64,000 nt of DNA from Anaerolinea sp. Lineage in GTDB: Bacteria > Chloroflexota > Limnocylindria > Limnocylindrales > CSP1-4. This document shows, piece by piece, positions 19,043 through 58,358 of this stretch. Under the pieces are notes generated by a model that worked only from the letters and a program-made list of their open reading frames with translations, was not told the origin of the DNA and did not search any database. A program made the position numbers and the translations under genes. The stretch lies in NCBI GenBank assembly GCA_013822395.1, contig PNKK01000010.1, positions 4,470 to 68,469 on the forward strand, read 5' to 3'. Within the stretch, counting starts at the first letter, position 1. Every line of letters begins with the position of its first letter.

Positions 19043-20206
19043 TCAATCGGGAGGAGCGAGACGGCGGATGACGATCAGTCCGGCAGCCAGCACGATGACG
19101 AAGATCACCACCGCGCCTCCGGCCGGGATCGAGCCTTCCGTGGAGGCTCTCGACCGGTCCGGGAGCGTGGATGTCGCCGGTGGCCGAGCTGATGACGCAC
19201 CCCGGGCCGACCCGGCGCTCGCCAACCCGGCGCCCGCGGAGAGTGAGCTTGGGGCGGGGAAGGCAGCTAATCCCAGGACTCGATCCGAGCCCTGGAGCCT
19301 GATGGACTGCCTGAGCCCGGCGGTCCGATCGAAGGCGAGCACGCGGTCAGGCGTGCCAAGGTAGACGATGCTCCCGTCGTCGCTCGCGGTGAGGATCCCC
19401 GTCGGTGTCCCCTGGTTCGCCCATACGGCGAGCGTGCGGCCGTCGGTGGCCCACAGCTCGTCTGAACCCGAGACGATGGGACCGAATGACGTTGACGTAA
19501 CGGCCGTCGGCTGCTCGGGAAGCGGCACGCTCCACAGAACGGCCGGATCGTCGAACCGGATCCGGGCGACTCGGTTCGGGGATCTCGTGACGACGAATCC
19601 CGCGCCGCCTGCGCGATCGACCGCCAGGCCAACGACCGCGCCCTTCAGGTTGAGCCTGGACACCGTCCGGGCTCCGACGTCGAGGATCGCCACCCATGCC
19701 GAACCGGATCGAGCGGCGATCGCATACGGGTCGCGTCGGTCGGCGGCCAGCAGATCCGGCGCGGCCGGCAGGCGCTCGGACTCCGAGATCGTCCCGTTCT
19801 CGAGATCCGCGAGCAGGAGTCGCGCGCGGGCCGGTCCCGCGGTGACCGCCGTCTGGCCGAGTGGGACAGCGACCGCCGCGACATTGATGGGCAGGGTGAT
19901 CGAGTCCGCGAGCTCGATCACTTCGATATCGATGCGACCGATCTGTGGCAACCCGCTCGCCAGGTAGAGCGACCGGCCGCTGTTGCTGAAGGCGGCCGCC
20001 GACGGGCTAGTGGCCACGTCCACCCGCGTGATGACCTTGCCCGAGGCGACGTGCAGCTCCAGCACTCCGCCGCTCGTGGTGGCGTACAGGTCGCCGACGG
20101 TTTCGGCGGAGGTTGGCCACGGCGCGGTGAGGGCGAGCACGACCAGGAGAAGGACGGCAGGAGCAACGGCCCGCGCACCAGAGACGCGGGGGGGCGGTGC
20201 AGTCAT
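19043..20206 (-). CDS. Secreted, C-terminally anchored beta-propeller-like protein
   Basis: Signal peptide ending PTSA/E, beta-repeat motifs (AFSNSGRSLYLAS, LAVDRAGGAGFVV, TASDDGSIVYLG), PPATST motif, C-terminal TM plus RR. Confidence 0.65.
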   Translation of the reverse strand: MTAPPPRVSGARAVAPAVLLLVVLALTAPWPTSAETVGDLYATTSGGVLELHVASGKVITRVDVATSPSAAAFSNSGRSLYLASGLPQIGRIDIEVIELADSITLPINVAAVAVPLGQTAVTAGPARARLLLADLENGTISESERLPAAPDLLAADRRDPYAIAARSGSAWVAILDVGARTVSRLNLKGAVVGLAVDRAGGAGFVVTRSPNRVARIRFDDPAVLWSVPLPEQPTAVTSTSFGPIVSGSDELWATDGRTLAVWANQGTPTGILTASDDGSIVYLGTPDRVLAFDRTAGLRQSIRLQGSDRVLGLAAFPAPSSLSAGAGLASAGSARGASSARPPATSTLPDRSRASTEGSIPAGGAVVIFVIVLAAGLIVIRRLAPPD

Positions 20207-20212
20207 GCCAGG

Positions 20213-20240
20213 GTATCGGCAGCCGGAAGGACCGGCTCAA
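20213..20240 (-). promoter_or_regulatory. Putative sigma28 promoter of the beta-propeller gene
   Basis: TTGAG-N15-GCCGATAC, 6 nt before ATG 20206; same spacing as the fliC and fliD promoters. Confidence 0.55.
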
Positions 20241-22636: not shown

Positions 22637-24220
22637 TCAGGCAGTGCGGTCGATCGTCCGGCCGAGCCGCGACGTTCCGGGCGGAACGTGTCCACCCTTG
22701 TCACGGCCGGCACGAGACGGCCGATCAACCATTGACGGGAGGTCGGGCACCCCCGCGGGTGGGTCGCCGTCCGGCCGTCGCCAATCGCGCCGACCCCCGA
22801 GATCCCCGGCAGTACCCGGCGGCGCATCGTGGTTCGGTCCCAGCTGGCGCCCACCGTCCGCTTCGGGCCGGATTCGAAGGTCGACGCCGGCCAGTTCGCC
22901 GGCGGCGCGGTGGCGGTCGGCAGCCAGTTGGAGGAGCTTGACGGAGACCGGGTCGTCCGCGGTGAGCACGGCCCTGATCAGCCCATCCGCACCCTGCGTC
23001 ACGGCGAGCCTCATCGAGCCGAGCGACGGATCATCGACGTCGGTGGTGAGGCTCGTTCCGCTCTCGCCGACCATCAGGCGAGCTCGGTCGATCACGCGGG
23101 TCAGAAGCCCGTCGGCATCCACGTCGGTGGCCGGGAAAGCGGCTGGAGTGGCCGCGTCGGTGGGGCGACCGACGGCTTCCGGGCGATGGCCGTCGGCAGG
23201 AACCGCCATGCTCGCCGCCGCGTCCGCTTGCCCGGCGACGGCCGTTCGCTCGGAGGACACGCCGGGCTCACGTGCCGGTTCGGCGAGGATCGGTCCCTCC
23301 CTGTGCGCGGCGGTCGGACCGGTGGCCCTCCAATCGAATGACCCTGCCTCCCCGCCCGGGCCGCGGGCGCCGCCGGACAGTCGCCCGTCCGTTGGGATGT
23401 CCGCGGATTCGATCGCCCCGGTCGTGGCCGGCACGGCCGGGGTCGCCGGGGTCGCCGCCGTTGCCGGCACGGCCGGGGTTGCCGTCGTTGCCGGCACGGC
23501 CGGGGTTGCCGCCGTCGCCGGGGTCGCCGCCGTTGCCGGCACGGCCGGTGTTGCCGTCGTTGCCGGCACGGCCGGGGTTGCCGGCGCGGCCGGGGTTGCC
23601 GGGGTTGCCGGCGCGGCCGGGGTTGCCGGGGTTGCCGGCGCGGCCGGGGTTGCCGGGGTTGCCGGCGCGGCCGGGGTTGCCGGGGTTGCCGGCACGGCCG
23701 GGGTTGCCGCCGTTGCCGGCACGGCCGGGGTTGCCGGGGTCGTCGGGGTCGTCGGGGTTGCCGGCACGGCCCGGGTCGCCGGGGTTGCCGCCGTTGCCGG
23801 CACGGCCGGGGTCGCACGCTGCGTCGGCGCGCGATCCGGGAGCATCACGTCTCCGTTGACGTCCGACTGCCCGAGCGATCCAATCGGCACGACCGCCGTT
23901 GCGATCGGCTGAACGGCGGTCGCAACCGGCGCCGCGATCGCAACTTCGGCCGGCTCGCCCGGGACACGCCGGGTGGGCTTTCCGGGCTTGGCATCTGATC
24001 CGTCGCTCGAATCGCCGCCGCTGCCGGAACTGCCGGATCCGGTGCGGGCATCGGGCTCCGCCCGCGTCGGCGCGGCACTCGCCTCGCGAGCCGCCTCGAC
24101 CGTGTCCTCGAATGTCCCGGACGGCTCGCTCGAGTCGGCCGTGGGCAAGTCCTTCAGCATCCCGCCCGTGCCGGCTTGTGGCTCGATCGACGAGAGGCGA
24201 GGCGCTCCAATGGTCAGCAT
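22637..24220 (-). CDS. fliK: Flagellar hook-length control protein, divergent
   Basis: Directly upstream of flgD; long Pro/Ala/Thr disordered region followed by a T3S4-like segment (DDPSLGSMRLAVTQGADGLIRAVLTAD). Confidence 0.72.
   Translation of the reverse strand: MLTIGAPRLSSIEPQAGTGGMLKDLPTADSSEPSGTFEDTVEAAREASAAPTRAEPDARTGSGSSGSGGDSSDGSDAKPGKPTRRVPGEPAEVAIAAPVATAVQPIATAVVPIGSLGQSDVNGDVMLPDRAPTQRATPAVPATAATPATRAVPATPTTPTTPATPAVPATAATPAVPATPATPAAPATPATPAAPATPATPAAPATPATPAAPATPAVPATTATPAVPATAATPATAATPAVPATTATPAVPATAATPATPAVPATTGAIESADIPTDGRLSGGARGPGGEAGSFDWRATGPTAAHREGPILAEPAREPGVSSERTAVAGQADAAASMAVPADGHRPEAVGRPTDAATPAAFPATDVDADGLLTRVIDRARLMVGESGTSLTTDVDDPSLGSMRLAVTQGADGLIRAVLTADDPVSVKLLQLAADRHRAAGELAGVDLRIRPEADGGRQLGPNHDAPPGTAGDLGGRRDWRRPDGDPPAGVPDLPSMVDRPSRAGRDKGGHVPPGTSRLGRTIDRTA
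23424..23812. repeat. Coding tandem repeat in fliK (9-bp PAT-type units; four exact 27-bp copies at 23581-23688)
   Basis: CCGGCGCGGCCGGGGTTGCCGGGGTTG x4, within ~390 bp of variant units. Confidence 0.95.
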
Positions 24221-24657
24221 CAGCGACCTCCGGTGATTGCGTCGCGAAGCATTGCGAGACGCCCGGTCATGAGTCGCCCGACGGCGGCGAACCGGAGCTG
24301 GGTCTCGGCCAGGGCGGCCATCTCCGACTCGAGGTCGACTCCATTGCCATCGTTCCGGATGGAACCGGCGAACATCGATGCCCCCGGCCCGTCACGCTCC
24401 GGCGGCCTGGCCGAGTCCAGGTGTCGCGGATCCGTTCGGAGCATCCCGCCCTGGATGGGCGGAGTGGACGCCCCACGGACCGGGGTTCCGTCCCGGGCAA
24501 GCTCCGCCCGGAGGACGCCCTCGAAGTCGACCGACTTCGGGCTGTACCCAGGAGTGTCGATGTTCGCGAGATTGCCGGCGACCAGCGACTCGCGCAGCGC
24601 GAGGCCGTTGAGGGCGCCCGACAGCGTTCGGTGGATCGGATCCTGCAGCCAGCTCAT
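24220..24657 (-). CDS. flgB: Flagellar basal-body rod protein FlgB
   Basis: LSGALNGLALRESLVAGNLANIDTPGY, RNDGNGVDLESEM; start ATG 24657. Confidence 0.93.
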   Translation of the reverse strand: MSWLQDPIHRTLSGALNGLALRESLVAGNLANIDTPGYSPKSVDFEGVLRAELARDGTPVRGASTPPIQGGMLRTDPRHLDSARPPERDGPGASMFAGSIRNDGNGVDLESEMAALAETQLRFAAVGRLMTGRLAMLRDAITGGR

Positions 24658-25886
24658 GGGTTGCCCTCCAGATAGCCTGCCCACGTCTTGAGGACCACGT
24701 CGATGTACCCACGCGTCGTGGGTGAGTCGGGGATCCCACCGGCGGCCCGGACGGCACCCTTGCCGGCCTGGTAGGCCGCCAGGGCGAGATCGACGCGCCC
24801 GTAGAGTTGAAGATTTCCGGCGAGGTACTTCGCACCCCCGCGCAGGTTCTGCGCGGGGTCGAACGGATCGTCGACCTGCAGGCTCCTGGCTGTGGCCGGC
24901 ATGAGCTGGGTGAGGCCCATGGCTCCGGCCGACGAGACCGCGTTCGCGCGGAAGTTCGATTCGGCGCGGACCAGCGAGGCGAGGAGGAACGGGTCGATCC
25001 CGGCCTCGGCCGCCGCGGCGCGGATCTCCTGTCCGTACGGGATGCGGCCGGCGATGCTGTCGAACCGTGCCAGCGTCGCCGCACCGTCCGGCAGGGGGTT
25101 CGGGGCCGCGGTCCCCAGCCCGGTCCCGAACGCCGCCGGCGAGTGGCTATCGGGCAATCGGCCCGCCTTGATCCAGAGAGCGGGATCCACGAGCTGGCCG
25201 TCGTGCCGCAGCTCGAAATGAAGGTGCGGACCCGTCGTCTTGCCGGTCATGCCGATCTCGCCGATCTGCTCCCCGGCCACCACCCGGTCTCCGGCACGAA
25301 CCTTGAGATCCGTGCCGAGATGGCCGTACAGCGTCTCGCTGCCGTCGTCATGGACGATCCGCACGACGACGGCGCCGTCCGCGACCGGGCCAGCGAAGGC
25401 GACTCGACCGTCCGCGGCGGCGAAGACCGGCTGTCCAACCGGTGCGGCGAGGTCCAGGCCGTCGTGGAAGTTCGCGTAGCGAACCCCGTTCACGGTGGCG
25501 GGCGGCTCGAATGCGAACTGAGATGGCCCGAACGGCTGCGTGGTCCGCGCACCGACCACGGGTGCCACGAAGCCGCCCTTGAGCTGCCCGGTAGGCCCGC
25601 CGGCCGCCGCCGTGGGCGCACCGACGGAGACCGCAGACAGGGCCGCCGCCGTGGGCGCACCGACGGAGACCGCAGACAGGGCCGCCGCGAATCCCTCCGG
25701 CGCCGTTCGGATCGGTGACAGGGGCTCCCCGTTCAGACTTGCCGACGTGCCCCAAGCGGGAATGGCCCGGCTATCGAGGACGCCGTCCAGGCTCCACAGG
25801 GTGGGGTCGATCTGCCGGACCCGGGCCTTGATCTGCTCGATCCGATCGAGCGTCAGGGCCATGGCCTCCGACATGATCGGTGTCAT
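24654..25886 (-). CDS. M23 endopeptidase - lytic transglycosylase (SLT) fusion
   Basis: M23 motifs HDGLD, YGHL, TTGPHLHFE; SLT motifs LVRAESNF, GAMGLTQLMPAT, ALAAYQAG. Confidence 0.9.
   Translation of the reverse strand: MTPIMSEAMALTLDRIEQIKARVRQIDPTLWSLDGVLDSRAIPAWGTSASLNGEPLSPIRTAPEGFAAALSAVSVGAPTAAALSAVSVGAPTAAAGGPTGQLKGGFVAPVVGARTTQPFGPSQFAFEPPATVNGVRYANFHDGLDLAAPVGQPVFAAADGRVAFAGPVADGAVVVRIVHDDGSETLYGHLGTDLKVRAGDRVVAGEQIGEIGMTGKTTGPHLHFELRHDGQLVDPALWIKAGRLPDSHSPAAFGTGLGTAAPNPLPDGAATLARFDSIAGRIPYGQEIRAAAAEAGIDPFLLASLVRAESNFRANAVSSAGAMGLTQLMPATARSLQVDDPFDPAQNLRGGAKYLAGNLQLYGRVDLALAAYQAGKGAVRAAGGIPDSPTTRGYIDVVLKTWAGYLEGNP
25603..25686. repeat. 39-bp in-frame tandem duplication (AAALSAVSVGAPT x2)
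   Basis: GCCGCCGCCGTGGGCGCACCGACGGAGACCGCAGACAGG occurs twice. Confidence 0.9.
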
Positions 25887-31143: not shown

Positions 31144-31530
31144 TCAGACCTGCAGCCGCATGATGTCCTGGTACGCTTCGAGGAGCCGATCCCGGATCTG
31201 GACGCCCAGCTTCACCTGGAGCGAGGCTTCCTGCATCTGCAGGATCACCGTCTGGAGGTCGGCGGATCCACCGGCGGCAAAGGTGGCCATCGCCTTGTCG
31301 GCGCTCACCAGGTCGGCGTTGAGCTGGGCGGTCGCCGCGCCGATGGCGTCGAGGAACGAGCCTCCCCCGCCCGCCTGCGTGGGTCCGCCGGCGCCGCCAC
31401 CGGCCGCGCCGGTGCCGATGGCGGGCGCGCCGATCGAGCTGCTGCCGGACAGCGACGACCCGACCGTACCGCCAGCGCTGCTCCCACGCCACAGGTCGGC
31501 CGGGATGCCCCCGATCGGTCCGATGCTCAT
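31144..31530 (-). CDS. fliE: Flagellar hook-basal body protein FliE
   Basis: SFLDAIG...ASLQVKLGVQIRDRLLEAYQDIMRLQV. Confidence 0.95.
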   Translation of the reverse strand: MSIGPIGGIPADLWRGSSAGGTVGSSLSGSSSIGAPAIGTGAAGGGAGGPTQAGGGGSFLDAIGAATAQLNADLVSADKAMATFAAGGSADLQTVILQMQEASLQVKLGVQIRDRLLEAYQDIMRLQV

Positions 31531-31535
31531 CGCTC

Positions 31536-31943
31536 TTACCGACCGATCTCGAGCGCGTCGAGGGCCGTCTGCTTGGCCGCCGCCGCGACTGTGGCGTTGA
31601 CCTGGTAGGCACGGGCCGCCCCCATGATGTCCGTCAGCTCGGCGGCGACGTCCACGTTCGGGTAGGCCACATAGCCCTGGGCGTCGGCATCCGGGTGGGT
31701 CGGATCGAAGACTCGGACATCGCCGCCCCCGGGTGCCACGATGGCCATGCCGCGCACGCCGGTTGCGGACGGGCTTGAGCCCACCTGCACCGGTCCGAAG
31801 ACGACGCGTTCGGCCCGATAGGGCCCGCCGGCCACCGTCCGCGTCGTCTGGGCGTTGGCGAGGTTGCTCGCAGCGATATCCATCCGCAGGCGTTGGGCGG
31901 TCAGGCCCGAGCTCGCAATCCGGAGGGTGTCGAAGACGCTCAT
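31536..31943 (-). CDS. flgC: Flagellar basal-body rod protein FlgC
   Basis: IASSGLTAQRLRMDIAASNLANAQTT, FDPTHPDADAQGYVAYPNVD, ARAYQVN. Confidence 0.96.
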   Translation of the reverse strand: MSVFDTLRIASSGLTAQRLRMDIAASNLANAQTTRTVAGGPYRAERVVFGPVQVGSSPSATGVRGMAIVAPGGGDVRVFDPTHPDADAQGYVAYPNVDVAAELTDIMGAARAYQVNATVAAAAKQTALDALEIGR

Positions 31944-32103
31944 GGCCGGTTCATTCCTTGGTGTGGCTCGCTGACGAGGCCAATCCTCGGTCGAGTCCTG
32001 GCGGTTCGGTATCGGGGAACACCAGTAGATGGCGCACCCGAACCGCCGCTCCGTTGCCCTCTGGCGACAGCGTCGCCTGGTGGAGGCGGGGTACACTGCC
32101 TCG

Positions 32104-33552
32104 GTGAGCCCGTCTGCCGTCGAGCGCATCTTGGCCGCTGCCGAGATCTGGCGCTCCGGCGCAGATCCGGCCGGTGGCCCGGTCGGATCCATGGCCGGCA
32201 CGCCGCACCGGAGCTCGTCCGAACCGGGGCCCGTCGCAGCGCGACTCGTGGTCGGCTGGGAGGCGGCCTACCCGTTCTGTGCGGCGATCTGCTCGACCGC
32301 CGCCGGACTCGACTTCTGCCGTCGGTGTCCCGAGGTCGTCGTCGCGTCGGTCCTCGCAACGCGCCGCCCGGCCGGTGGAACATGCGGGGCGGGTGTCCGC
32401 CTGCTGGCCTTTCCGGTGCCGACGGATGATCGCCGTTCGGCCGAGGTCGTCGTCCTCCGCGTGGGCCATCCGACTGCCCGGCAGGTGGCAAAGATGGGCT
32501 CGATCGCCCACGTTCCGCCCGCTTCGCTCCGTCGGGCCGCCCACGAGTCCCCCCCGAGCCGCGGGGGCGACGTCCTGCGCGCCGCCCATCGACTCCGATC
32601 GGCCGCCGGGAGGCTGGAATGGCAGGTGGTCGAACGCGAGCGTAGCGCGGACCGCCAGCGTGCCGCCTCCGCGACCCTCGCCCAGTTCATCGTCGCGACG
32701 GAGGAGTTCCAGGCCCTCTATCGCAGCGCGGACCGCCAGCGGCGCGAGCTTCAACGGGCTCGCGACACGGCCGATCGGCTTGCCCGCGAAGCCGTTCGTG
32801 TCCGCCAGCGCGAGCACGCGCGCATTGCGCACCAGATCCACGACACGGCCGCCCAGTCGATGGTCAGCGCGGTCCGCTTCCTTGACGCGGCAGTCAGCGA
32901 ACTGCGTGCCTGGGAAGCGTCTCGATCGCACCAGGCCGGGCAGAGCGAAGCCGGGCAAGCCGTTCGGCACGGCGCGGACAAGGGCGGGCTGGCGCTCGTG
33001 GCCGGCCATCTCGACCTGGCGCAGGAGCGTCTCCGAGCGGCCATCCACGAGATTCGCATGACCCTGGATGAGCTCACCCCGGCCGGCCTCGAGCAGGGGC
33101 TGGATCAGGCCGTCCGCTTTCGCCACCGGGACCTGCTCGTGGAAACAGGCCTGAACGGAAGCGTCCAGGGGACCCTGCCCCGCCTGGAGCCGTGGGTCGA
33201 GCAGGTGGTCTACGGGATGGTCACCGAGGCGATGACCAACGCGGCGCGGCACTCGGGCGGGCAGAGCCTCTCGGTTGACTGCTCGACGGTGCGCGATCGG
33301 GTCGTGATCGTGGTCCGTGATGACGGGATCGGGACGTCCGGCTGGGGCGATCGCTCCGCCGCTCGTCGCCGGGGCGGCGGTGGCGGGCTGGGCATCGCCG
33401 GCCTTGTACGCCAGACGCGCTGGCTGGGCGGCACGGTCGCGTTCCGGGACCGATCGGGGGGCGGAACCGCGGTCAGGATCTCCGTTCCGCTCTCGCGCCA
33501 CCTTCCGAAGCGACCGGGAGCGGACGACGGGCCGGTGGAGACGTCGGCATGA
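32104..33552 (+). CDS. Cytoplasmic HisKA_3 histidine kinase with N-terminal PocR-like Cys-rich sensor
   Basis: PFCAAIC...DFCRRC...GTCGAGVRLLAFPV; RIAHQIHDTAAQ; EAMTNAARHS, VRDDGIG, GLGIAG. Start GTG 32104 (TACACT 6 nt upstream); the ORF track starts at 32029. Confidence 0.85.
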   Translation: MSPSAVERILAAAEIWRSGADPAGGPVGSMAGTPHRSSSEPGPVAARLVVGWEAAYPFCAAICSTAAGLDFCRRCPEVVVASVLATRRPAGGTCGAGVRLLAFPVPTDDRRSAEVVVLRVGHPTARQVAKMGSIAHVPPASLRRAAHESPPSRGGDVLRAAHRLRSAAGRLEWQVVERERSADRQRAASATLAQFIVATEEFQALYRSADRQRRELQRARDTADRLAREAVRVRQREHARIAHQIHDTAAQSMVSAVRFLDAAVSELRAWEASRSHQAGQSEAGQAVRHGADKGGLALVAGHLDLAQERLRAAIHEIRMTLDELTPAGLEQGLDQAVRFRHRDLLVETGLNGSVQGTLPRLEPWVEQVVYGMVTEAMTNAARHSGGQSLSVDCSTVRDRVVIVVRDDGIGTSGWGDRSAARRRGGGGGLGIAGLVRQTRWLGGTVAFRDRSGGGTAVRISVPLSRHLPKRPGADDGPVETSA

Positions 33553-34223
33553 GCGGACGGCGCGTCTCCGTCCTGCTGATCGATGACCACGAGCTGGCAC
33601 GACGCGGCCTCGAGGCGATGCTGGCGACGGCCGGCTGGATCACCGTTCTCGGCGGGGCGCCCGACTGTCTCAGTGGCCTGGAAGCCGTGGAGCGTCTTCG
33701 GCCGGATATCGTGGTGCTGGACATCAAGATGCCCGAGATCAACGGGCTGGAGTGCCTGGAGCGCCTGAAGGGGCTCGGCAGGCCCGTCGCCGTGGTCATC
33801 CTGACCCTCTACGACGATCGCCGCTACGTGATCGAGGCGATCCGCCGCGGGGCAGCCGGCTACCTGCTCAAGGACGCCGTGGCCGCGGAGGTCATCGCGA
33901 CGCTCCGCGATGTCGCGGATGGCCGCCTGGCGATCGAGCCGACGCTGTTGCGCGAGGCGCTTGCCGGGGACCTGGAGCCTCGTCCCGAGGGGAGCGTGGC
34001 CCGCACGCGCGCGGCCGAATTGTCGATCACCCCGCGGGAGCTCGAGGTGCTGGGCGCTCTTGCCGAGGGCATGACGAACAAGGAGATCGGCGGGGGCCTC
34101 GGGATCTCCGAGGACACCGTCAAGAAGCACGTCCAGAACCTGATCTGGAAGCTTCGCGCCGCCGATCGGACTCAGGCCGCGGTCATTGCCATCCGGACGG
34201 GGCTCCTCGACCTCGACCAGTGA
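33549..34223 (+). CDS. NarL/LuxR family response regulator
   Basis: LIDDH, VVLDIKMP, GYLLK, ITPRELEVL...GMTNKEIG...TVKKHV. Confidence 0.95.
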   Translation: MSGRRVSVLLIDDHELARRGLEAMLATAGWITVLGGAPDCLSGLEAVERLRPDIVVLDIKMPEINGLECLERLKGLGRPVAVVILTLYDDRRYVIEAIRRGAAGYLLKDAVAAEVIATLRDVADGRLAIEPTLLREALAGDLEPRPEGSVARTRAAELSITPRELEVLGALAEGMTNKEIGGGLGISEDTVKKHVQNLIWKLRAADRTQAAVIAIRTGLLDLDQ

Positions 34224-34255
34224 GCCGCCCCGACTACCGGGGAATGCCCTCAAAT

Positions 34256-34283
34256 TCAAGGCGAGATGAGAGGTTGCCGACAC
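34256..34283 (+). promoter_or_regulatory. Putative sigma28 promoter (flaG)
   Basis: TCAAG-N15-GCCGACAC. Confidence 0.65.
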
Positions 34284-34293
34284 CTCGATCACC

Positions 34294-34587
34294 ATGGCGG
34301 ACCTGCTCAGCCCGATCAGCACCGAAGCCCCGGTCGTGTCCGGACCAGGGCGTCCGGCACGGGTGCGGCCCGGAGGGGGTGCGCCGGACGCGTTCCTGAA
34401 GCAGGCGGGCCCCGATGTTCGAGTGAACGGGCCCGCCGGTCCCCTGGCGCTGTTCGCGGTCTTCACCGTGGACCCGGAGACGGACGAGGTTCAGGTCGCG
34501 GTCTTCGATGAGCGGGGGCTGGTCCGGTTGATCCCGCCGGACAGCGTGTCCGAGATGATCGCCGCGATGAGGGCCTACCGGCCCTGA
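34294..34587 (+). CDS. flaG: FlaG-like flagellar protein
   Basis: FTVDPETDEVQVAVFDERGLVRLIPPD resembles the FlaG core. Confidence 0.75.
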   Translation: MADLLSPISTEAPVVSGPGRPARVRPGGGAPDAFLKQAGPDVRVNGPAGPLALFAVFTVDPETDEVQVAVFDERGLVRLIPPDSVSEMIAAMRAYRP

Positions 34588-34634
34588 CCGAGACTGGCCG
34601 GCGCCGGCGCCGCGGCCCCCGGTCGACGAGCGGC

Positions 34635-34662
34635 TCCAGTCTCGGTCAGGCGCGCCCGATAC
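34635..34662 (+). promoter_or_regulatory. Putative sigma28 promoter (cheC operon)
   Basis: TCCAG-N15-CCCGATAC. Confidence 0.6.
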
Positions 34663-34726
34663 CCAGGAGGGACCCGGCGGTGCAGATCATCCCGCCGCCA
34701 GGTCCCGCCACCGCGAAAGGGCTCCC

Positions 34727-35371
34727 ATGACGCTCACCACCGGATCGCCCGTTGGGCAGACGATCCTGGCCACGATCTTCCTCAACGCCATGGCGCGCGC
34801 GGGCGACGCCCTCGCAGGAATGAGCGGCCATGACATCGTGGTCCGGGCGGCCGAGGTGCGGATGCGTCGAGCCAACGAGGTCGTCGATGATTGCGGCGGG
34901 CCCGATGCAGTCGTTGCCGGTGTCTATGTCGGGATCACCGGACCCCTGCATGGGCACGCCCTGATGCTTCTCTCCCCGGATGGCGCCCGGCGGTTCGCCG
35001 CGCTCCTCCTGGAGGGGGTCCTCGAGCCGGGCGAGGCCCTTCCCGGGCCGGACGGCGAGCTCGCCCTCGGGCCGCTCGAGGCATCGGCCCTCCAGGAGTT
35101 GGGCAATGTCACGATCTCAGCCTGTCTGAACGAGCTCGGGACGTACTTCGAGGAACCGGTCCACCCCACGGTGCCGCAAGCCATCGTGGAGCTTGCCGGC
35201 GCGATCCTCGATGCCGTGCTGGCGGACCTGATCGCCGAGGTCGATCAGGTCCTCTCGGCGCGCACGTCCTTCACGATCGGTGGTGAGTCGATCGACGGCA
35301 CGATCCTGATCCTCCCCGATGCGCCATCCCTCGAGCGCCTCGCCGAGGCCGTCGCCTCGCAGCATCGATGA
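34727..35371 (+). CDS. cheC: CheY-P phosphatase CheC
   Basis: GVYVGITGPLHGHALMLL, SALQELGN, PTVP, GAILDAVL; adjacent to cheD. Confidence 0.85.
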   Translation: MTLTTGSPVGQTILATIFLNAMARAGDALAGMSGHDIVVRAAEVRMRRANEVVDDCGGPDAVVAGVYVGITGPLHGHALMLLSPDGARRFAALLLEGVLEPGEALPGPDGELALGPLEASALQELGNVTISACLNELGTYFEEPVHPTVPQAIVELAGAILDAVLADLIAEVDQVLSARTSFTIGGESIDGTILILPDAPSLERLAEAVASQHR

Positions 35372-35877
35372 CGCTGACGATCCCGGGCGGCGCCCCGGCC
35401 TCGACGATCCCCGGATTGTCGGTCGCCGGCATCGGCGAGATGGTGAGCTCCGCCGATCCCGACCACACCCTGGTCTGCTACGGGCTCGGCTCGTGCGTGG
35501 CCCTCAGCGCCTGGGACCCACGCGTGCGGGCGGCGGCCCTGGCCCATTTCATGTTGCCCTCGGGCAGCAGCAGCGGTCCGCCGGTGAAGTTCGTGGACGA
35601 GGGCTTCGAGCGACTCCTCGACGCCTTTCGGGTGATCGGAGGGTCGCCCGGGCGCGCAGAGTTCAAGGCGGCCGGCGGCGCATCGATGCTGGCGGTCATG
35701 GCCAGCACGCTGGACATCGGCCGCCGGAACATCCAGGCCGTCGAGACCCGCCTGGCCGGCGCCGGACTGCGCATGACCGCGTCCGATCTGGGTGGCTCGG
35801 CCGGGCGAACGGTTCAACTCGCGGTCGGCACCGGCCGACTGCTCATCAAGAGCGTCTCGGGTACGAAGGCGCTATAG
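35368..35877 (+). CDS. cheD: Chemoreceptor glutamine deamidase CheD
   Basis: YGLGSCVAL, AHFMLP, KAAGGASM, DIGRRN, DLGGSAGRTV. Confidence 0.95.
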   Translation: MTLTIPGGAPASTIPGLSVAGIGEMVSSADPDHTLVCYGLGSCVALSAWDPRVRAAALAHFMLPSGSSSGPPVKFVDEGFERLLDAFRVIGGSPGRAEFKAAGGASMLAVMASTLDIGRRNIQAVETRLAGAGLRMTASDLGGSAGRTVQLAVGTGRLLIKSVSGTKAL

Positions 35878-35925
35878 GCAGACCCGGCGGGGCTCGACGC
35901 CGCCATCTCCCGGAGGTCGAACAGC

Positions 35926-36282
35926 ATGGCCAAGATCCTCGTCGTGGACGATGCCGCGTTCATGCGGCTTCGTGCGACCAAGCTCCTGGCGGACGCGGGC
36001 CACGTCGTATACGAGGCGGAGAATGGCCGGCTCGCGGTCGAGGTCTATGCCCGGGAGCGGCCGGACGCGGTCCTGATGGACATCACGATGCCGGAGATGG
36101 ACGGCATGGAGGCGCTCGACGCGATCCGTGGGTCGGATCCCTCGGCCAAGGTCGTCATGCTGACCGCGATGGGCCAGCAGTCGATCGTGATGGACGCGAT
36201 CAAGCGAGGCGCTCGGGACTTCATCGTCAAGCCGTTCACCCCGGACCGGGTCCTGGCCGCGGTCGCAAAGCTCACCGCCTGA
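35926..36282 (+). CDS. cheY: Chemotaxis response regulator CheY
   Basis: MAKILVVDDAAFMR, MDITMPEMDG, TAMGQQSIV, DFIVKPF (Bacillus/Thermotoga-type CheY). Confidence 0.93.
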   Translation: MAKILVVDDAAFMRLRATKLLADAGHVVYEAENGRLAVEVYARERPDAVLMDITMPEMDGMEALDAIRGSDPSAKVVMLTAMGQQSIVMDAIKRGARDFIVKPFTPDRVLAAVAKLTA

Positions 36283-36313
36283 GCCGTCACCCGGTCGACA
36301 GGGACACGCTCGG

Positions 36314-37447
36314 ATGATCGCCATCGAGCCGATCCGGGTTCTCGTGGTCGACGACTCGGCGTTCATGCGACACGCGGTGACCCGCCTCCTCGGCGAGTCC
36401 CCCGGGATCGAGGTCGTGGGCGCAGCGGCGAACGGCGAGGCGGGACTCGAGCTGGCACGACAGCTCCGACCGGACGTCATCACCCTCGATGTCGAGATGC
36501 CCGTCCTGGATGGACTCGGCATGCTCCACAGAGTGATGGCCGAGCAACCGGCACGGGTGATCATGCTGTCCAGCCTGACGACCGATGGCGCGGCGGTCAC
36601 CATGGATGCCCTGGCGTCGGGCGCCATCGATTTCGTGGCCAAGCCCTCAGGCTCGTTGTCGATCGACATCGGTCGGGTTGGTCTGGATCTCGTCGCCAAG
36701 ATCCAGGCTGCCGCCAGCATGTCCCAGGCCTCGTTCCTGGTCCATGCTCGCCGGGCGGCCATGCGGGTGGACCACGGTTCCGCGGCGATGCTCCCGCGTG
36801 GCGCCGCACCGGGAGGGATGCCCGATGCCCGGCAGGCTCGCGACGCGGGGAAGCCTCGGCCACCACGGACGGTGGCTCGGAAGATCGTCGTCATCGCGTC
36901 GTCGACCGGTGGACCGAGCGCGCTCCAGGCAGTGGTGGGTGGTCTTCCGGAACGACTCGGCGGTGCCGTCCTCATCGTCCAGCACATGCCGGCCGGCTTC
37001 ACGTCCTCCCTCGCGAGGCGCCTGGATTCGTCCGGCCGTCTCGAGGTGGTTGAAGCCGCTGCCGACGATCTCATCAGCGACGAACGGATCCTCGTGGCGC
37101 CGGGGGACTACCATCTCGTCAGCTCGGCAAGCGGTCGGATCCAGCTGGTCCGGCTGCCGCCCGTGAATGGGGTCCGCCCCGCGGCCGACGTCACGCTCCA
37201 ATCCCTGGCTCCCGTCTGGCGGGACCGGATGCTCAGTGTTGTCCTGACCGGCATGGGGAGCGACGGAACGGAGGGCGCCCGGGCGGTCAGGAAGCACGGT
37301 GGCGCGGTCTTCGCCCAGGACGAGGCAACCGCCACGATCTATGGGATGCCGAGGGCCGTCGTCGAGGCCGGGCTCGCCGATCGGGTGCTGCCGCTGGATC
37401 GGATGGCGGACGCCATCGCGGCCTGGGCCGATCCGGCGGTGCACTGA
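36314..37447 (+). CDS. cheB: Chemotaxis methylesterase CheB
   Basis: REC domain plus ASSTGGP, VQHMP, RPAAD, LTGMGSDG, IYGMP. Confidence 0.96.
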   Translation: MIAIEPIRVLVVDDSAFMRHAVTRLLGESPGIEVVGAAANGEAGLELARQLRPDVITLDVEMPVLDGLGMLHRVMAEQPARVIMLSSLTTDGAAVTMDALASGAIDFVAKPSGSLSIDIGRVGLDLVAKIQAAASMSQASFLVHARRAAMRVDHGSAAMLPRGAAPGGMPDARQARDAGKPRPPRTVARKIVVIASSTGGPSALQAVVGGLPERLGGAVLIVQHMPAGFTSSLARRLDSSGRLEVVEAAADDLISDERILVAPGDYHLVSSASGRIQLVRLPPVNGVRPAADVTLQSLAPVWRDRMLSVVLTGMGSDGTEGARAVRKHGGAVFAQDEATATIYGMPRAVVEAGLADRVLPLDRMADAIAAWADPAVH

Positions 37448-37645
37448 GCCAGGCGCTCTGCCGGGGCGGCGGCTCCCTCCCCGACCGTGCGGTGGCGGCC
37501 CCTCACATGGGTACTCCACCGGTCCATCGACGGCTGGTATGTTCCGATCCCGGACCTCCGATGCGGTCGACGAGCGATCTCGCAGGGTGCGTCCCTGGGT
37601 CCCGCTTCTTCAGTGGCTGGGGGAGAAGGACGACCGAGCGTACAG

Positions 37646-39037
37646 ATGACCATCCCAGCCGACGTCACCTCGCGGCCCCGACGGGGCGCCATCGGTGATC
37701 CAGCGGTCCTTCTGCCCGCGGTCCTGCATTCCCCGGAGCTCGCTCCCGCGACGGCTTCGACGGGCCACCCACCTCGACGCTTTGCGCCCATCGTGGCGGT
37801 CTCGGCACCACCTGCATCTCCCCACCGCGGTGCCGGGTCGGCCGAGCGCCGGCTCGACGAGGTGGAGGCCATCGCCCGGATCGGCTCGTACTCGCTCCAT
37901 GTCCCGTCGGGACGATGGGTCAGCTCGAAGGGCCTCGACGCGATCCTCGGGATCGACGGCGCCTTCGATCGATCGATCGAGAGGTGGATCTCGCTCGTCC
38001 ATCCGACTGATCGCGAGGCCGTGCGCGGCCACCTCGTCGTCGACGTCCTCGGCGGAGGGCACCCGTTCGACCGGCGCTACCGGATCGTCCGAGCCGACAC
38101 GGGCGAGGAGCGGTGGGTCCACGGGCGCGGCACGCTCGAGCTCGACGGCTTCGGCCGGCCGCAGCGGTTGCTCGGAACGATCGCCGACATCACCGAGCTC
38201 CACCGGAGCGAGGACCGGGACGACGAGCTGGTTCGCGAGCGCATCCGCGACGCTCTGGCGGACGGCGGCCTGCGGCCCGTCTTCCAGCCGGTGGTCGCGC
38301 TGGCGTCGGGCGAGGTCATCGGCTACGAGGCGCTCACCCAGTTCGCGAACGGGACCCCTCCCGATCAGCTGATCAACGAGGCGCACGGGGTTGGTCTCGG
38401 CATCGAGCTCGAAACCGCCTGTCTCACAGCTGCGCTCGGGGCCACCGAGGCGCTCCCGGCGGGCACCTGGCTCAGCCTGAACGTCTCGCCGGCACTGATC
38501 CTCCGGGAAGGCACGCTGTCTGGGCTCCTCGCCGGTCGGTCACGCCGGATCGTTCTCGAGATCACCGAGCACGCGGAGGTCAACGACTACGATGCGGTCC
38601 GCCGGGCGATCGCGGGCCTCGGACCCACGGTCGGTCTCGCGGTCGATGACGTCGGCGCCGGATTCGCCAGTCTCCGCCACGTGATCGAGCTCCGGCCCCG
38701 GTTCGTCAAGCTCGACATGAGCCTCATCCGCCACGTGGATCGCGATCTGACCCGCCAGGCGATGGTCGCCGGCATGCGGCAGTTTGCGGCTCGCGCCGAC
38801 TGCGAGGTCATCGCCGAGGGAATCGAGGAGCCCGGTGAGCTCGAGGTGCTGCGCGAGATCCAGCTGTCCCTCGGCCAGGGGTTTCTGCTCGGTCGGCCGA
38901 AAGGCCGCGGCCAGTTCGACGACCCCGAACTGAGAGCCCCGGCGGCTCCGCTCCGTACCGGTAGTGGCGATCCCGTACCTCGTCTCGGCGGCGATCCCCC
39001 TCGACCGGTTACTCGCCCAACCGCGGCGTGTCGTTGA
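37646..39037 (+). CDS. PAS-EAL c-di-GMP phosphodiesterase-like protein
   Basis: PAS (LVHPTDR, YRIVRADTGEERWV); EAL motifs FQPVV, YEAL, LNVSP, LEITE, DDVGAG, VKLD, AEGIE, QGFLLGRP. Start uncertain. Confidence 0.88.
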   Translation: MTIPADVTSRPRRGAIGDPAVLLPAVLHSPELAPATASTGHPPRRFAPIVAVSAPPASPHRGAGSAERRLDEVEAIARIGSYSLHVPSGRWVSSKGLDAILGIDGAFDRSIERWISLVHPTDREAVRGHLVVDVLGGGHPFDRRYRIVRADTGEERWVHGRGTLELDGFGRPQRLLGTIADITELHRSEDRDDELVRERIRDALADGGLRPVFQPVVALASGEVIGYEALTQFANGTPPDQLINEAHGVGLGIELETACLTAALGATEALPAGTWLSLNVSPALILREGTLSGLLAGRSRRIVLEITEHAEVNDYDAVRRAIAGLGPTVGLAVDDVGAGFASLRHVIELRPRFVKLDMSLIRHVDRDLTRQAMVAGMRQFAARADCEVIAEGIEEPGELEVLREIQLSLGQGFLLGRPKGRGQFDDPELRAPAAPLRTGSGDPVPRLGGDPPRPVTRPTAACR

Positions 39038-39074
39038 CCGTTGCGTCCACGGGGCCGAAAGCGAGAGGATACCG

Positions 39075-39653
39075 ATGACACTCTGGCGCGCGAACCAGGT
39101 TGGCCGCTCGGTGGCGCCCCTGCCGCCGTTGCAGTCGCCGACCCCCATCGGGTCGGCTGTGGAGCAGTTCCTGCGAGCTTGGACAGAGGACCTGTACGTC
39201 AGCGGCTTCATCTCGGGCTGGGGTCGCCTGTCCGATGCCCTGAACCAGCGGGAGCCGTTGAGGATCGAACAGGCGCGGGTGCACGGCCTGCGCTCGGCCA
39301 GCTGGCTGCCCCGGCCGGATGGTGAGATGGTGATCGATCCCTTCGACCTGGAGCTCGCGCTCGGCTACGCCATCGTGGGGTCGGACGCCGAGCGAGCGGC
39401 CAAGCGGATCCACAAGGTCAGATATCCGGTGCTGATCGAGGGCCAGGAATTCGAGGTCCTCGGCACGATGCATGTCTTCCCGGGCAACGCGCCGGAGTAC
39501 GCGACGCATCGCAGCGGCCTGCTGTTCCTGCCGATCACGGAACCGTCCGTGCGTCGCCGGCAGCGCCTGGTGAGCGACCGCTACACCGATGTCGCCCTCG
39601 TGAATCGATACGCGATCCGGCGCATCCGTCAGCTCGACAGCCGGCCCAGCTGA
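39075..39653 (+). CDS. Conserved hypothetical protein
   Basis: Globular-looking ORF with SD GAGGA; motifs GRLSDALN, EVLGTMHV, FLPITE, VALVNR. Confidence 0.7.
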   Translation: MTLWRANQVGRSVAPLPPLQSPTPIGSAVEQFLRAWTEDLYVSGFISGWGRLSDALNQREPLRIEQARVHGLRSASWLPRPDGEMVIDPFDLELALGYAIVGSDAERAAKRIHKVRYPVLIEGQEFEVLGTMHVFPGNAPEYATHRSGLLFLPITEPSVRRRQRLVSDRYTDVALVNRYAIRRIRQLDSRPS

Positions 39654-39823: not shown

Positions 39824-40522
39824 ATGTCGCTTGTCGTCAGTCGACCGACGCAGACTCGACGGTCGTTCGCATTCACGTCGCCGTCTCGCCCGCGGCAGCT
39901 GCTGCACGCGATCGTGGCCCATCCGGTCGCCGTGATCCGTGCAGGGCTCGGGGTGCTCCTGAGTGATGAAGCCTTCGGTCAGGTGACGGGCGCCCCCTCC
40001 ACCTTCGACGCCCTGCGGATCGCGGGGATCCATCATCCGGATGTCGTTCTGTTTGACTTCTCGGCAGGCGGGGGTCCGGCCGTCGGTCGGCTGTTCGCCG
40101 GCCTCTGGCCGCGCCCGGTCCTTGTCGGCCTGGTGGGACCCGGCTCCACGATCGGCGCCCGCGAGTGCCTGGACGCCGGTCTGGACGCCGCCATCGCGCT
40201 CGAGGGCGCCACCGGCGAATCGATCCTCGACGCCGTCCGGGTCGCCATGGACGGCAGAGGTCCAGTCGTATCCGGGTTCCGCCCTGACCAGATCGGCGAT
40301 CAAGCCGTCGTGATCGACGATCACCAGACGTCGGTGCTCACCCGGCGGGAGCGCGAGATGCTGCATCTCATCGGAGAGGGTCTCTCCAATCGGGAGATCG
40401 CCGAGGTCCTGGGCCTCTCGGTCAAGACGGTCGAGGCGCATCGAGGCAATCTGAGCCGCAAGCTCAACATCCGCACGCGCTCAGGCCTGATGCGCGTCGC
40501 CATGGGCACGCTCGTCAGCTAG
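39824..40522 (+). CDS. LuxR-type regulator with degenerate receiver domain
   Basis: LTRREREMLHLIGEGLSNREIAEVLGLSVKTVEAHR HTH; the receiver lacks the acidic pair and the Lys. Confidence 0.87.
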   Translation: MSLVVSRPTQTRRSFAFTSPSRPRQLLHAIVAHPVAVIRAGLGVLLSDEAFGQVTGAPSTFDALRIAGIHHPDVVLFDFSAGGGPAVGRLFAGLWPRPVLVGLVGPGSTIGARECLDAGLDAAIALEGATGESILDAVRVAMDGRGPVVSGFRPDQIGDQAVVIDDHQTSVLTRREREMLHLIGEGLSNREIAEVLGLSVKTVEAHRGNLSRKLNIRTRSGLMRVAMGTLVS

Positions 40523-50626: not shown

Positions 50627-50860
50627 ATGGAGCTGCTCGTCGCCGTCTGGGCCGTCCGGCTCGCCGCGCTGGCAGCGCTGGCGGTCGGCGCGATCTCCGT
50701 GTCCGTCGGAGCGCCGCCGCTCGAGGCGGTCCTGCGCGCCGCCGCCGCCGCCTTCGCCTTCACCCTCGGCGGCCGCGTGCTCCTCGCACGCCTCGAGACA
50801 CCCGAGCAGCGGTTGCGACGACTCCTGACCCGACGGGCGCAGAAGGACGGTGGGTCGTGA
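50627..50860 (+). CDS. Small hypothetical membrane protein (two hydrophobic helices, basic tail)
   Basis: Fills the flhA-fliA gap; its stop overlaps the fliA GTG. Confidence 0.65.
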   Translation: MELLVAVWAVRLAALAALAVGAISVSVGAPPLEAVLRAAAAAFAFTLGGRVLLARLETPEQRLRRLLTRRAQKDGGS

Positions 50861-51726
50861 CCGCGATGCCGGAGAACGTCCCGATCCCCTCACCCACGGC
50901 GCCCGTCTCGGACCGGAGCGGCGTGCCGGCGAGGCCGGCGTGGGTCGGTCGGGATGACCCTCGGGAGTCGGTGGGGACCGCCCCGGCGGGACCGCCCCGG
51001 GACGAGCTGGTGGCACGCTACGCCCATCTCGTGAAGTACGTCGTGGGCCGGCTCGGCGTAGCTGTCGGCGGCGTATCCGACCACGAGGATGCGATGCAGG
51101 TCGGGACCATCGGCCTGCTCAAGGCGATCGACGGCTACGACGCGCGCCACGCGGCATCCTTCGAGTCATACGCCATCACCCGGATCCGGGGGACGATCCT
51201 CGATTCGATCCGCAGCCTCGACACCGTCGGCCGGACCGGGCGGGAGGCCGGTCGGGCCATCCAGGCGGCGATCGGCGAGCTGACCGGCCAACTCGGTCGG
51301 ATGCCCGACGAAGCGGAGGTCGCCGAACGGCTCGGGGTGAGCGTGGCCCGCTATCGTGAGCAGCTGCAGGTGGCGAGCCTGGTCATCCTGTCGCTCAACG
51401 AGCTCCGTCTCCATGACGATGACGAGGGCGTCGGGCTGGAGGACCTGACCGCGGACTCGCTCGCCGTGGACCCGGAGGCCGCCGCGGTTCAGAACGACCT
51501 CGTGGCATCGCTGGGGAAGGAGATCCGGCGGCTCGACGAGCGTCAGCAGCTCATCCTCTCGCTCTACTACCGGGACGGGTTGACCTTCCGCGAGATCGGC
51601 GAGGTCCTGCGGATCACCGAATCGCGCGTCTGCCAGATCCACGCTGAGCTGGTGCTGGCGCTGCGCGCCCGCCTCGCCGAACCGGACGTCGCGCAGCGTC
51701 TCAACCGTCGAAGGAGCCGTCGATGA
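50857..51726 (+). CDS. fliA: RNA polymerase sigma28 factor (FliA/WhiG)
   Basis: YAHLVKYVV, GTIGLLKAIDGYD, FESYAITRIRGTILDSIR, LTFREIGEVLRITESRVCQIH. Confidence 0.96.
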   Translation: MTAMPENVPIPSPTAPVSDRSGVPARPAWVGRDDPRESVGTAPAGPPRDELVARYAHLVKYVVGRLGVAVGGVSDHEDAMQVGTIGLLKAIDGYDARHAASFESYAITRIRGTILDSIRSLDTVGRTGREAGRAIQAAIGELTGQLGRMPDEAEVAERLGVSVARYREQLQVASLVILSLNELRLHDDDEGVGLEDLTADSLAVDPEAAAVQNDLVASLGKEIRRLDERQQLILSLYYRDGLTFREIGEVLRITESRVCQIHAELVLALRARLAEPDVAQRLNRRRSRR

Positions 51727-52515: not shown

Positions 52516-52830
52516 GTGAAGATCGACGACGTCAACCCCACGGCGTCCGGTACCGGCCAGGTCGGCCGCCCGGTCGTGCCCGTGCGCCCGGCCAGATCCG
52601 GCGCCGGGCCGGACCCGGCAATCACCGGGGCCCCCGCCGGCGCGCCGCCGGCGGCCACGGTCGAGCTGTCGATCCGCGTCCTCGAGCTGCATGCGGCGCG
52701 GCGCGCCGTCGAAGAAGCGCCGGACGTTCGGGCGGACGTCGTTGACGATGTCCGCAGCCGCCTGGCGGACGGCCGCTACCGACTGGATGCCGACGTGACC
52801 GCCCGCGGCATCCTGGACCGACGGGCATGA
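52516..52830 (+). CDS. flgM: Anti-sigma28 factor FlgM
   Basis: TVELS, APDVRADVVDDVRSRLADGRYRLD; strong SD AAGGAGG. Confidence 0.9.
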   Translation: MKIDDVNPTASGTGQVGRPVVPVRPARSGAGPDPAITGAPAGAPPAATVELSIRVLELHAARRAVEEAPDVRADVVDDVRSRLADGRYRLDADVTARGILDRRA

Positions 52831-56256: not shown

Positions 56257-56284
56257 TTCAGCGGACCGGGCTCACGTCCGATAC
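56257..56284 (+). promoter_or_regulatory. Putative sigma28 promoter (fliC)
   Basis: TTCAG-N15-TCCGATAC. Confidence 0.75.
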
Positions 56285-56310
56285 CCATTGGGACGGGCAT
56301 TCGCTCCGTC

Positions 56311-58274: not shown

Positions 58275-58302
58275 TCAAGATGCGGGCATCCCCGGCCGAT
58301 AC
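58275..58302 (+). promoter_or_regulatory. Putative sigma28 promoter (fliD)
   Basis: TCAAG-N15-GCCGATAC. Confidence 0.78.
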
Positions 58303-58358
58303 CTCGGTACAGCCCGGCTGGGTCACAGCCGGTACACCGGTAAGGCGAGAGATTTCGC

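Follow-up and report, generated by a model that had tools for sequence, protein, structure and literature searches.

We analysed a kinase-regulator gene pair that lies within a flagellar gene cluster of Anaerolinea sp. (Chloroflexota, Limnocylindria), a member of a freshwater lineage without cultured representatives. The window, meaning the whole stretch of DNA under analysis, consists of 64,000 nucleotides of contig PNKK01000010.1 (assembly GCA_013822395.1), and all positions are counted from its first letter. The pair encodes a soluble HisKA_3 histidine kinase with a cysteine-rich sensor and a NarL-type response regulator, and it is transcribed divergently from flgC. We know of no study of flagellar regulation in Chloroflexota. 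DegS of Bacillus subtilis belongs to HisKA_3; to our knowledge it has neither a PocR nor a cysteine sensor, and degSU is not known to be encoded inside the flagellar cluster. In descriptions of DegS-DegU, the kinase is soluble and its NarL-type partner targets the promoter of the large flagellar operon; with SwrA, the system has been named the master activator of flagella (PMC12826050, PMC3874003, 10.1101/2023.08.04.552067). NreB-NreC of Staphylococcus and Bacillus licheniformis likewise combines a soluble HisKA_3 kinase with a NarL-type regulator. The N-terminal PAS-type domain of NreB is reported to hold a Cys-ligated [2Fe-2S] or [4Fe-4S] cluster on a CX2CX11C or CX2CX11CX2C motif, and the targets named in that account are nitrate respiration or sulfide oxidation rather than motility (PMC13478379). 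In the AirS-AirR (YhcSR) system of Staphylococcus aureus, the kinase AirS is described as cytoplasmic and as sensing redox state through a [2Fe-2S] cluster at its N-terminus, whose oxidation state determines how active the kinase is (PMC8774646). Domains of the PocR family (PF10114, named after the Salmonella PocR regulator) have a PAS-like fold. They are described as sensing small hydrocarbon derivatives, for example 1,2-propanediol (PMC13602510, PMC13725321). They are also found in histidine kinases (P0158; Methanosarcina kinases, 10.1101/2024.10.04.616672). Flagella are reported to be rare and patchily distributed in Chloroflexota, where flagellar and chemotaxis loci are uncommon and have been noted only in freshwater members of a single Limnocylindria family (PMC13212565).

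The two genes described here, their domains and their conservation are well established. Judged from gene neighbourhood, the pair is probably tied to motility. The motility context is strong for the combined flagellar and chemotaxis module. It is less strong for flagella taken by themselves, since the pair survives where flagellar genes have been lost. We put at about even chances the reading in which the pair forms a cytoplasmic two-component system specific to a lineage of Limnocylindria-type Chloroflexota and tunes motility and chemotaxis genes in response to a cue read by a cysteine-ligated PocR domain.

In a scan of one genome per species we found 44 loci with a full or partial orthologue of the kinase, all of them titled Chloroflexi/Chloroflexota, Chloroflexia, Anaerolineaceae or Candidatus Limnocylindrales metagenome-assembled genomes (MAGs). 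Their gene neighbourhoods were read with the window proteins as probes. Four of these loci, in which the kinase lies at a contig end, were left out of the count of upstream neighbours. In 28 of the remaining 40 the divergent upstream neighbour is flgC, and in the other 12 ABC-transporter-like genes take its place. The regulator follows the kinase in 43 of the 44 loci; in the last one (L050) the contig stops inside the kinase. Downstream, a cheC-like gene is present in 34 of 44 loci, usually with cheD, cheY and cheB. A flaG-like gene between the regulator and cheC is kept in the flagellated loci and missing in those without flgC. The che operon is still attached in 7 of the 12 flgC-less loci, and in 11 of the 12 the pair is intact with the four conserved sensor cysteines. 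Conservation of the pair beside flgC in relatives had been proposed as a check by the original prediction, and absence of the pair from related flagellar clusters was not seen.

In a draw of 301 genomes from the class, the sensor was found in 12, FliG in 9 and both in 8. The ninth FliG-positive genome (G079) has a kinase fragment at the start of a contig, so that all nine FliG-positive genomes have the kinase. Neither FliG nor a full-length kinase relative was found in any of 24 same-genus or 16 same-order genomes, and the window genome is the only one of the 25 in the genus draw with both. This pattern in the genus points to patchy retention or to acquisition of a whole motility island. The genome is a 2.93-Mb MAG that is 69.7% complete. 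A mis-binned contig was considered and rejected: the G+C content of the contig (70.8%, as in the window) compares with 70.6% for the genome, and its tetranucleotide distance ranks 29th among 37 large contigs, so that the contig fits the genome.

The open reading frame (ORF) of the kinase extends over positions 32029-33552 on the forward strand (507 aa), with that of the regulator next to it (Table 1). Thirty homologues of the kinase align from residue 26 of this ORF and several begin with Met there. Because of these homologue starts and the position of a conserved TA(C/T/G)ACT hexamer, GTG 32104 is the likely start, which yields a kinase of 482 aa. It also gives a gap of 160 bp to flgC, in agreement with the divergent arrangement across about 160 bp noted in the original prediction. 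The ATP-binding domain is clear, with 46.5 bits for HATPase_c against a Pfam cut-off of 26.4 bits. HisKA_3 (PF07730) stays below its cut-off for the window sequence (16.7 versus 24 bits). A precomputed PF07730 assignment exists for nearly all kinase homologues from P0006 onward and the histidine of the HQIHD motif, H246, is invariant across 31 homologues; the kinase can be classed as HisKA_3-type, its best NCBIfam matches being MctS, MadS, NarQ, LiaS and UhpB. No transmembrane segment was found in the kinase; since its Kyte-Doolittle mean over 19 residues peaks at 1.31, we consider it cytoplasmic. The regulator matches Response_reg (E 1.7e-23) and GerE (E 4.1e-18) in Pfam, and it matches NarL in NCBIfam at E 6.8e-45, under the cut-off of that family. 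The residues of its acidic pocket and phosphorylation site (D12, D13, D58, T86 and K108) are all present, and by sequence it is a canonical NarL-type transcription factor. Its ATG overlaps the TGA of the kinase (ATGA), so that the two genes form one unit. The soluble HisKA_3 kinase, its NarL-type partner and their position at the pivot of the cluster stand as first proposed; flgC lies on one side and the flaG-like and che genes on the other.

The sensor proved to be a distant relative of PocR domains. Against the Pfam PocR family it scored 15.9 bits (E 0.012) within the 507-aa ORF, 17.4 bits as a fragment, 16.8 bits as the sensor and 16.9 bits in a six-frame search of the genome. When the sensors of the family were scanned singly, 26 of 43 matched PocR at E <= 0.01 (best 5.9e-5) and none matched another Pfam family. 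As a comparison set we aligned 19 PocR domains of Chloroflexota genomes, all of them bona fide members that exceed the Pfam cut-off. The sensor profile aligned with this set by hhalign over 106 columns with a probability of 79.9% and E 1.4e-5, pairing the FC, CxxC and C-x-G...P elements and the later helical part. The profile check recommended in the original prediction was therefore positive in spite of the sub-cut-off Pfam score. A search of 1.84 billion representative proteins with the sensor profile returned just 39 matches up to an E-value of 1e-3. The six that scored lowest fall outside the family; five of these are PocR proteins over the cut-off, matched inside their PocR domain, and an AraC-PocR protein is among them, as is a REC-PAS-PocR-HisKA kinase. 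PocR sets account for 23 of the 30 feature matches of the sensor in the ESM Atlas. Since these four tests (family scans, hhalign, library search and ESM Atlas) agree, the sensor is, on sequence grounds, homologous to PocR: a divergent, probably PAS-like PocR domain that forms a narrow subfamily of its own. It shares with the family the motif FC...C(xx)C...C-x-G...P and the C-terminal helical part. It differs from ordinary PocR domains in scoring under the Pfam cut-off, in being fused to HisKA_3 instead of AraC or HisKA, in having the extra cysteine C63 and in being encoded in a flagellar and chemotaxis cluster instead of beside catabolic genes.

An AlphaFold2 model of the sensor, built from an alignment of 43 sequences, had a mean pLDDT of 89.2 and a pTM of 0.79. 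It has a five-stranded PAS-like sheet with intervening helices, in the order of two N-terminal strands with a disordered variable insert between them, three short helices, three strands and three helices. A further helix, of about 50 residues, leads to the H-box. The sensor contains the five cysteines noted in the original prediction, C59, C63, C72, C75 and C94 (numbering of the 482-aa protein), spaced C-x3-C-x8-C-x2-C-x18-C. Conserved N-terminal cysteines, candidate ligands as in Fe-S sensor kinases of the NreB/AirS type, are present: C59, C72, C75 and C94 occur in 42 of 43 sensors, and C63 in 37 of 43. The four invariant cysteines and the fifth, common one probably lie on the pocket-side helices and strand of the PocR sensor. 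Three or four of these positions are also Cys in many ordinary PocR domains. The exception among the 43 is L056 (10065-10631), a flgC-less locus in which the sensor reads as if out of frame and the cysteine motif is lost; this kinase may be a decaying copy.

Compared with NreB, the spacing of the cysteines is different, and the Fe-S cluster is one that we only infer for the present kinase. A profile search of PDB sequences with the sensor gave no match at E up to 10, although the entry for the NreB PAS domain may not be in that set. AirSR has another regulon, and AirS was compared by its description only. As for DegS-DegU, no shared DNA motif was found, and no SwrA-like partner turned up here, no search aimed at SwrA having been made. 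In the literature on PocR domains and kinases and on Limnocylindria flagella (supplements lay outside its scope) we found no account of this kinase family or of a metal-binding PocR domain.

We also examined the intergenic region between flgC and the kinase, together with 25 related intergenic regions. The hexamer TA(C/T/G)ACT lies 6-10 nt 5' of the kinase start in 28 of 29 flgC-kinase intergenic regions. Because this -10-like box is so close to the start codon, the transcript of the pair would be leaderless or nearly so. A sigma-70 consensus scan of positions 31500-35000 predicted no promoter, and one terminator-like site within the regulator gene, on the wrong strand. Towards flgC, a box of the form C[CT]GATA[CT]C (or CCGATGTT, in two loci) was found upstream of flgC in 28 of 28 loci, generally about 100 nt from the gene and 64 nt from it in the window and in L013, the closest relative (kinase identity 69%). 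This box, CCGATACC in the window, has no matching sigma-28-like -35 element. Elsewhere in the window the same octamer follows T[CT][CA]A at N15-17, which is a sigma-28-like pattern (in its wider form, T[CT][CAG]A-N15/16-N1/2-CCGA[TC]ACC). The genome has 76 copies of the octamer, and about 1.7 are expected per window. Such patterns precede the flaG-like and cheC/X-like genes, flagellin, fliD and an unannotated ORF; the flaG-like gene has a CCGACACC variant, and its counterpart in L013 has CCGATACC. They are probably read by the sigma factor encoded at 50857-51726.

The palindrome GGCGAC-agc-GTCGCC, to which the original prediction had drawn attention in this region, does exist. It was rejected as an operator, since it is unconserved and such repeats occur at chance level. 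Perfect palindromes with 6-nt arms and a spacer of 0-8 nt number 456 in the window, an average of 1.14 in every 160 bp; among 399 tiles of that length, 209 contain at least one. The palindrome is missing at the aligned position in L013 and in all other loci. Another palindrome, GGGTCC-N6-GGACCC, abuts the flgC box in the main clade (exact in 10 of 28 loci, with one mismatch in 6 more) and is missing from the window and L013. It too was rejected as a regulon motif: when up to one mismatch is allowed, 16 of 28 loci have it at the flgC site, and just four other occurrences were found. We also observed an inverted repeat, CGAGG-ccaat-CCTCG, at 31975-31989 in the presumed 5' leader of flgC. Its equivalent in L013 is CGAGG-tccat-CCTCG, and the main clade has CCGAA...TTCGG in the same place; it may form an RNA hairpin.

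From these features we infer a cofactor, a signal, a phosphotransfer route and targets for the pair. The kinase consists of the PocR sensor, a long signalling helix, the HisKA_3 phospho-acceptor domain and the ATPase domain. Kinase and regulator would be expressed as a bicistron of their own, translationally coupled by the ATGA overlap and driven by its own sigma-70-like -10 box near the start codon, between the flgC-led operon and the flaG-like and che genes with their sigma-28-like promoters. A centre held by cysteines in the PocR pocket would read an intracellular cue and thereby set autophosphorylation of the kinase at H246, from which phosphate would pass to D58 of the regulator. The phosphorylated regulator would then bind DNA and tune transcription of motility and chemotaxis genes, and probably of other genes too.

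Several results weigh against a motility-tuning system with a PocR sensor. Neither flgC nor che lies beside the pair in five loci (L028, L040, L045, L047 and L054). Of the 12 sensor-positive genomes in the class draw, four have neither FliG nor FlhA, and FlhA was missing from all ten genomes to which flgC-less loci led; the two sets overlap, as three genomes have identical sensor sequences. The same FlhA query matched FlhA in G079 at E = 0. The related genomes are kin, so that the counts overstate independence and represent a pattern, not a statistical test. With 15.9-17.4 bits the sensor falls short of the Pfam PocR gathering cut-off of 23.9 bits, and the fold searches yielded weak matches only. 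Foldseek against the PDB gave nothing at E <= 1e-3, its weak rows being mainly PAS, LOV and GAF. VIA-align over 48,161 chains gave 73 chains with Z of 5 or more, of which none reached 8; in most of them the similarity is confined to the long helix. For the globular part, PAS-like domains came out best, with Z no higher than 5.3-5.5 (7jl6_B: rmsd 3.9, 84 residues). Finally, no binding site of the regulator was identified, the one repeat with strong conservation upstream of flgC, GGGTCC-N6-GGACCC, being confined to the main clade and occurring once per locus.

The original prediction went further than a tuning role and proposed a metabolite-, metal- or redox-gated top-level switch for flagellar genes. 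The pair would then be a class-I (top-level) master regulator that acts through the 160-bp region to switch flgC-fliE-fliF and subsequently, with the sigma-28-like factor, the whole regulon. The module synteny, with the divergent flgC arrangement kept in most assessable loci, and the presence of the kinase in every FliG-positive genome of the class draw fit this proposal. Neither FlhC nor FleQ turned up in the genome, whose completeness is 69.7%; the claim that rival master regulators are absent held for these two, the only ones that this result covers. DegS-DegU/SwrA indicates by analogy that a NarL-type pair can head a flagellar hierarchy, the same role being unproven here. However, the palindrome is unconserved and at chance level, the element best conserved upstream of flgC looks like a sigma-28 -10 box and not like a regulator-type repeat common to other promoters, and genomes that lack FliG or FlhA still keep the pair. 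The window also offers other candidates, namely the LuxR-type protein by flbD-motAB, the sigma-28-like factor with FlgM, FliW and the PAS-EAL protein. We consider a master regulator unlikely. Alternatively, the pair could serve redox or metabolic control in general and have targets outside motility, in which case its position next to flgC and che would be inherited gene order that means nothing for regulation. The pair with its four cysteines stays intact in nearly all flgC-less loci, five loci have no flagellar or che neighbours, the pair has its own promoter with sigma-28-like promoters separating it from its neighbours, and the Cys/Fe-S HisKA_3 systems NreBC and AirSR are described as controlling respiration and redox genes (PMC13478379, PMC8774646). 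Against this, the kinase was not found in 289 of the 292 FliG-negative genomes of the class draw, so that its distribution tracks the motility and chemotaxis module rather than general metabolism; moreover, the che operon remains attached in more than half of the flgC-less loci. A purely general regulator is in our judgement improbable.

The nature of the cue is a separate matter. The sensor might bind a small organic ligand (a diol, alcohol or aldehyde) as PocR does, with the cysteines being structural, for example as a zinc site. Homology to PocR domains, the small hydrocarbon derivatives described for that family and the cysteine positions common to many ordinary PocR domains are consistent with such a ligand. 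On the other hand, no ligand-metabolising genes adjoin the pair, and a soluble HisKA_3 kinase whose PAS-like pocket has four invariant cysteines resembles the arrangement described for NreB and AirS (PMC13478379, PMC8774646). A small-ligand sensor is possible but seems doubtful to us. By analogy with those kinases we lean slightly towards a metal or iron-sulfur/redox centre over an alcohol-type ligand.

Neighbouring motility genes are given in Table 1. The labels of cheY and cheB are based on ORF size, sequence and synteny. FliW is also encoded in the window. The LuxR-type gene at 39824-40522, directly upstream of flbD-motA-motB-fliL-fliM, is a candidate for a second motility regulator; among the 44 related loci its product has a match in L013 only. 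Matches to Sigma54_activat in the genome are weak, and none lies on the contig of the window. A fifth Flg_bb_rod match (E 2.2e-4) was seen in an ORF of 154 aa at 24220-24684 on the reverse strand, about 7 kb displaced from flgC. This ORF is probably flgB, and its displacement means that the flgC operon would start without flgB, unlike in Bacillus. Two further ORFs in the flagellar cluster, 22637-24220 (reverse strand, 527 aa) and 38964-39653 (forward strand, 229 aa), match no Pfam family at E <= 0.1, save for a stray DUF6812 in the second. CheA-, CheR- and MCP-like genes and a further receiver gene lie on the same contig at about 68.9-73.7 kb, just to the right of the window, and a CheW-like gene lies on another contig (C143) of the same genome. 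Among 20 public runs, which are assembled contigs from which transcript start, strand and level cannot be read, two RNA-library assemblies contained short near-identical pieces (34612-35053 and 33997-34236), for which carry-over of DNA is possible.

Table 1. Positions of the kinase-regulator pair, its promoter region and neighbouring features in the window
Feature	Position	Strand	Basis
Sensor histidine kinase, 482 aa, cytoplasmic	32104-33552	+	ORF, Pfam, homologue alignment
PocR-type (PAS-like) sensor core with C59, C63, C72, C75, C94	32239-32598	+	AlphaFold2 model, hhalign
HisKA_3 H-box region (HQIHD; candidate phospho-acceptor H246)	32812-32913	+	Pfam E 0.011, below cut-off
HATPase_c catalytic domain	33211-33495	+	Pfam E 5.8e-12
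NarL/FixJ-type response regulator (REC 8-119, GerE HTH 159-214)	33549-34223	+	Pfam
Divergent intergenic region flgC/kinase, 160 bp	31944-32103	.	Sequence; aligned with 25 related intergenic regions
CCGATACC box, sigma-28 -10-like, 64 nt upstream of flgC ATG	32008-32015	-	Conserved
Palindrome GGCGAC-agc-GTCGCC	32063-32077	.	Sits where the -35 of the kinase promoter would be
TACACT -10-like box, 6 nt before GTG start	32092-32097	+	Conserved hexamer
Sigma-28-like promoter pattern, 5' of unannotated 387-aa ORF (19043-20206)	20212-20240	-	CCGATACC pattern
Sigma-28-like promoter pattern, 5' of flaG-like gene	34256-34284	+	Pattern, CCGACACC variant
Sigma-28-like promoter pattern, 5' of cheC/X-like gene	34635-34663	+	CCGATACC pattern
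Sigma-28-like promoter pattern, 5' of flagellin	56257-56285	+	CCGATACC pattern
Sigma-28-like promoter pattern, 5' of fliD	58275-58303	+	CCGATACC pattern
fliE	31144-31530	-	Pfam
flgC, first gene of leftward flagellar operon (flgC-fliE-fliF-fliG...)	31536-31943	-	Pfam Flg_bb_rod, Flg_bbr_C
Small FlaG-like gene	34294-34587	+	Pfam FlaG E 0.0063, below cut-off
cheC/X-like, cheD, cheY, cheB	34727-37447	+	CheX E 0.011 (weak); CheD by Pfam
PAS-EAL protein (c-di-GMP phosphodiesterase type), directly after cheB	37487-39037	+	PAS and EAL domains
Second LuxR-type (GerE) protein	39824-40522	+	GerE; faint receiver match at N-terminus, E 0.02
Sigma-28-like sigma factor	50857-51726	+	Sigma70_r2, r3, r4
FlgM anti-sigma factor	52516-52830	+	Pfam FlgM E 1.1e-11

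If the pair were an ordinary redox regulator, the outcome would be the routine annotation of a divergent two-component system. In the most far-reaching case, which we think rather remote, the pair would be the top-level oxygen- or redox-gated motility switch of flagellated Limnocylindria, acting through an Fe-S or metal centre in PocR, and flagellum-less relatives would keep it for the remaining che and sigma-28 module. In that case the pair would provide the first PocR sensor with a metal cluster and, for Chloroflexota, the first description of a class-I flagellar regulator. The pair is the one regulator that accompanies the flagellar and chemotaxis module throughout the lineage. The four invariant cysteines align with those of ordinary PocR domains, which raises the idea that PocR domains generally hold a metal centre. 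If true, this would change the reading of a family that is annotated as a sensor of small hydrocarbons.

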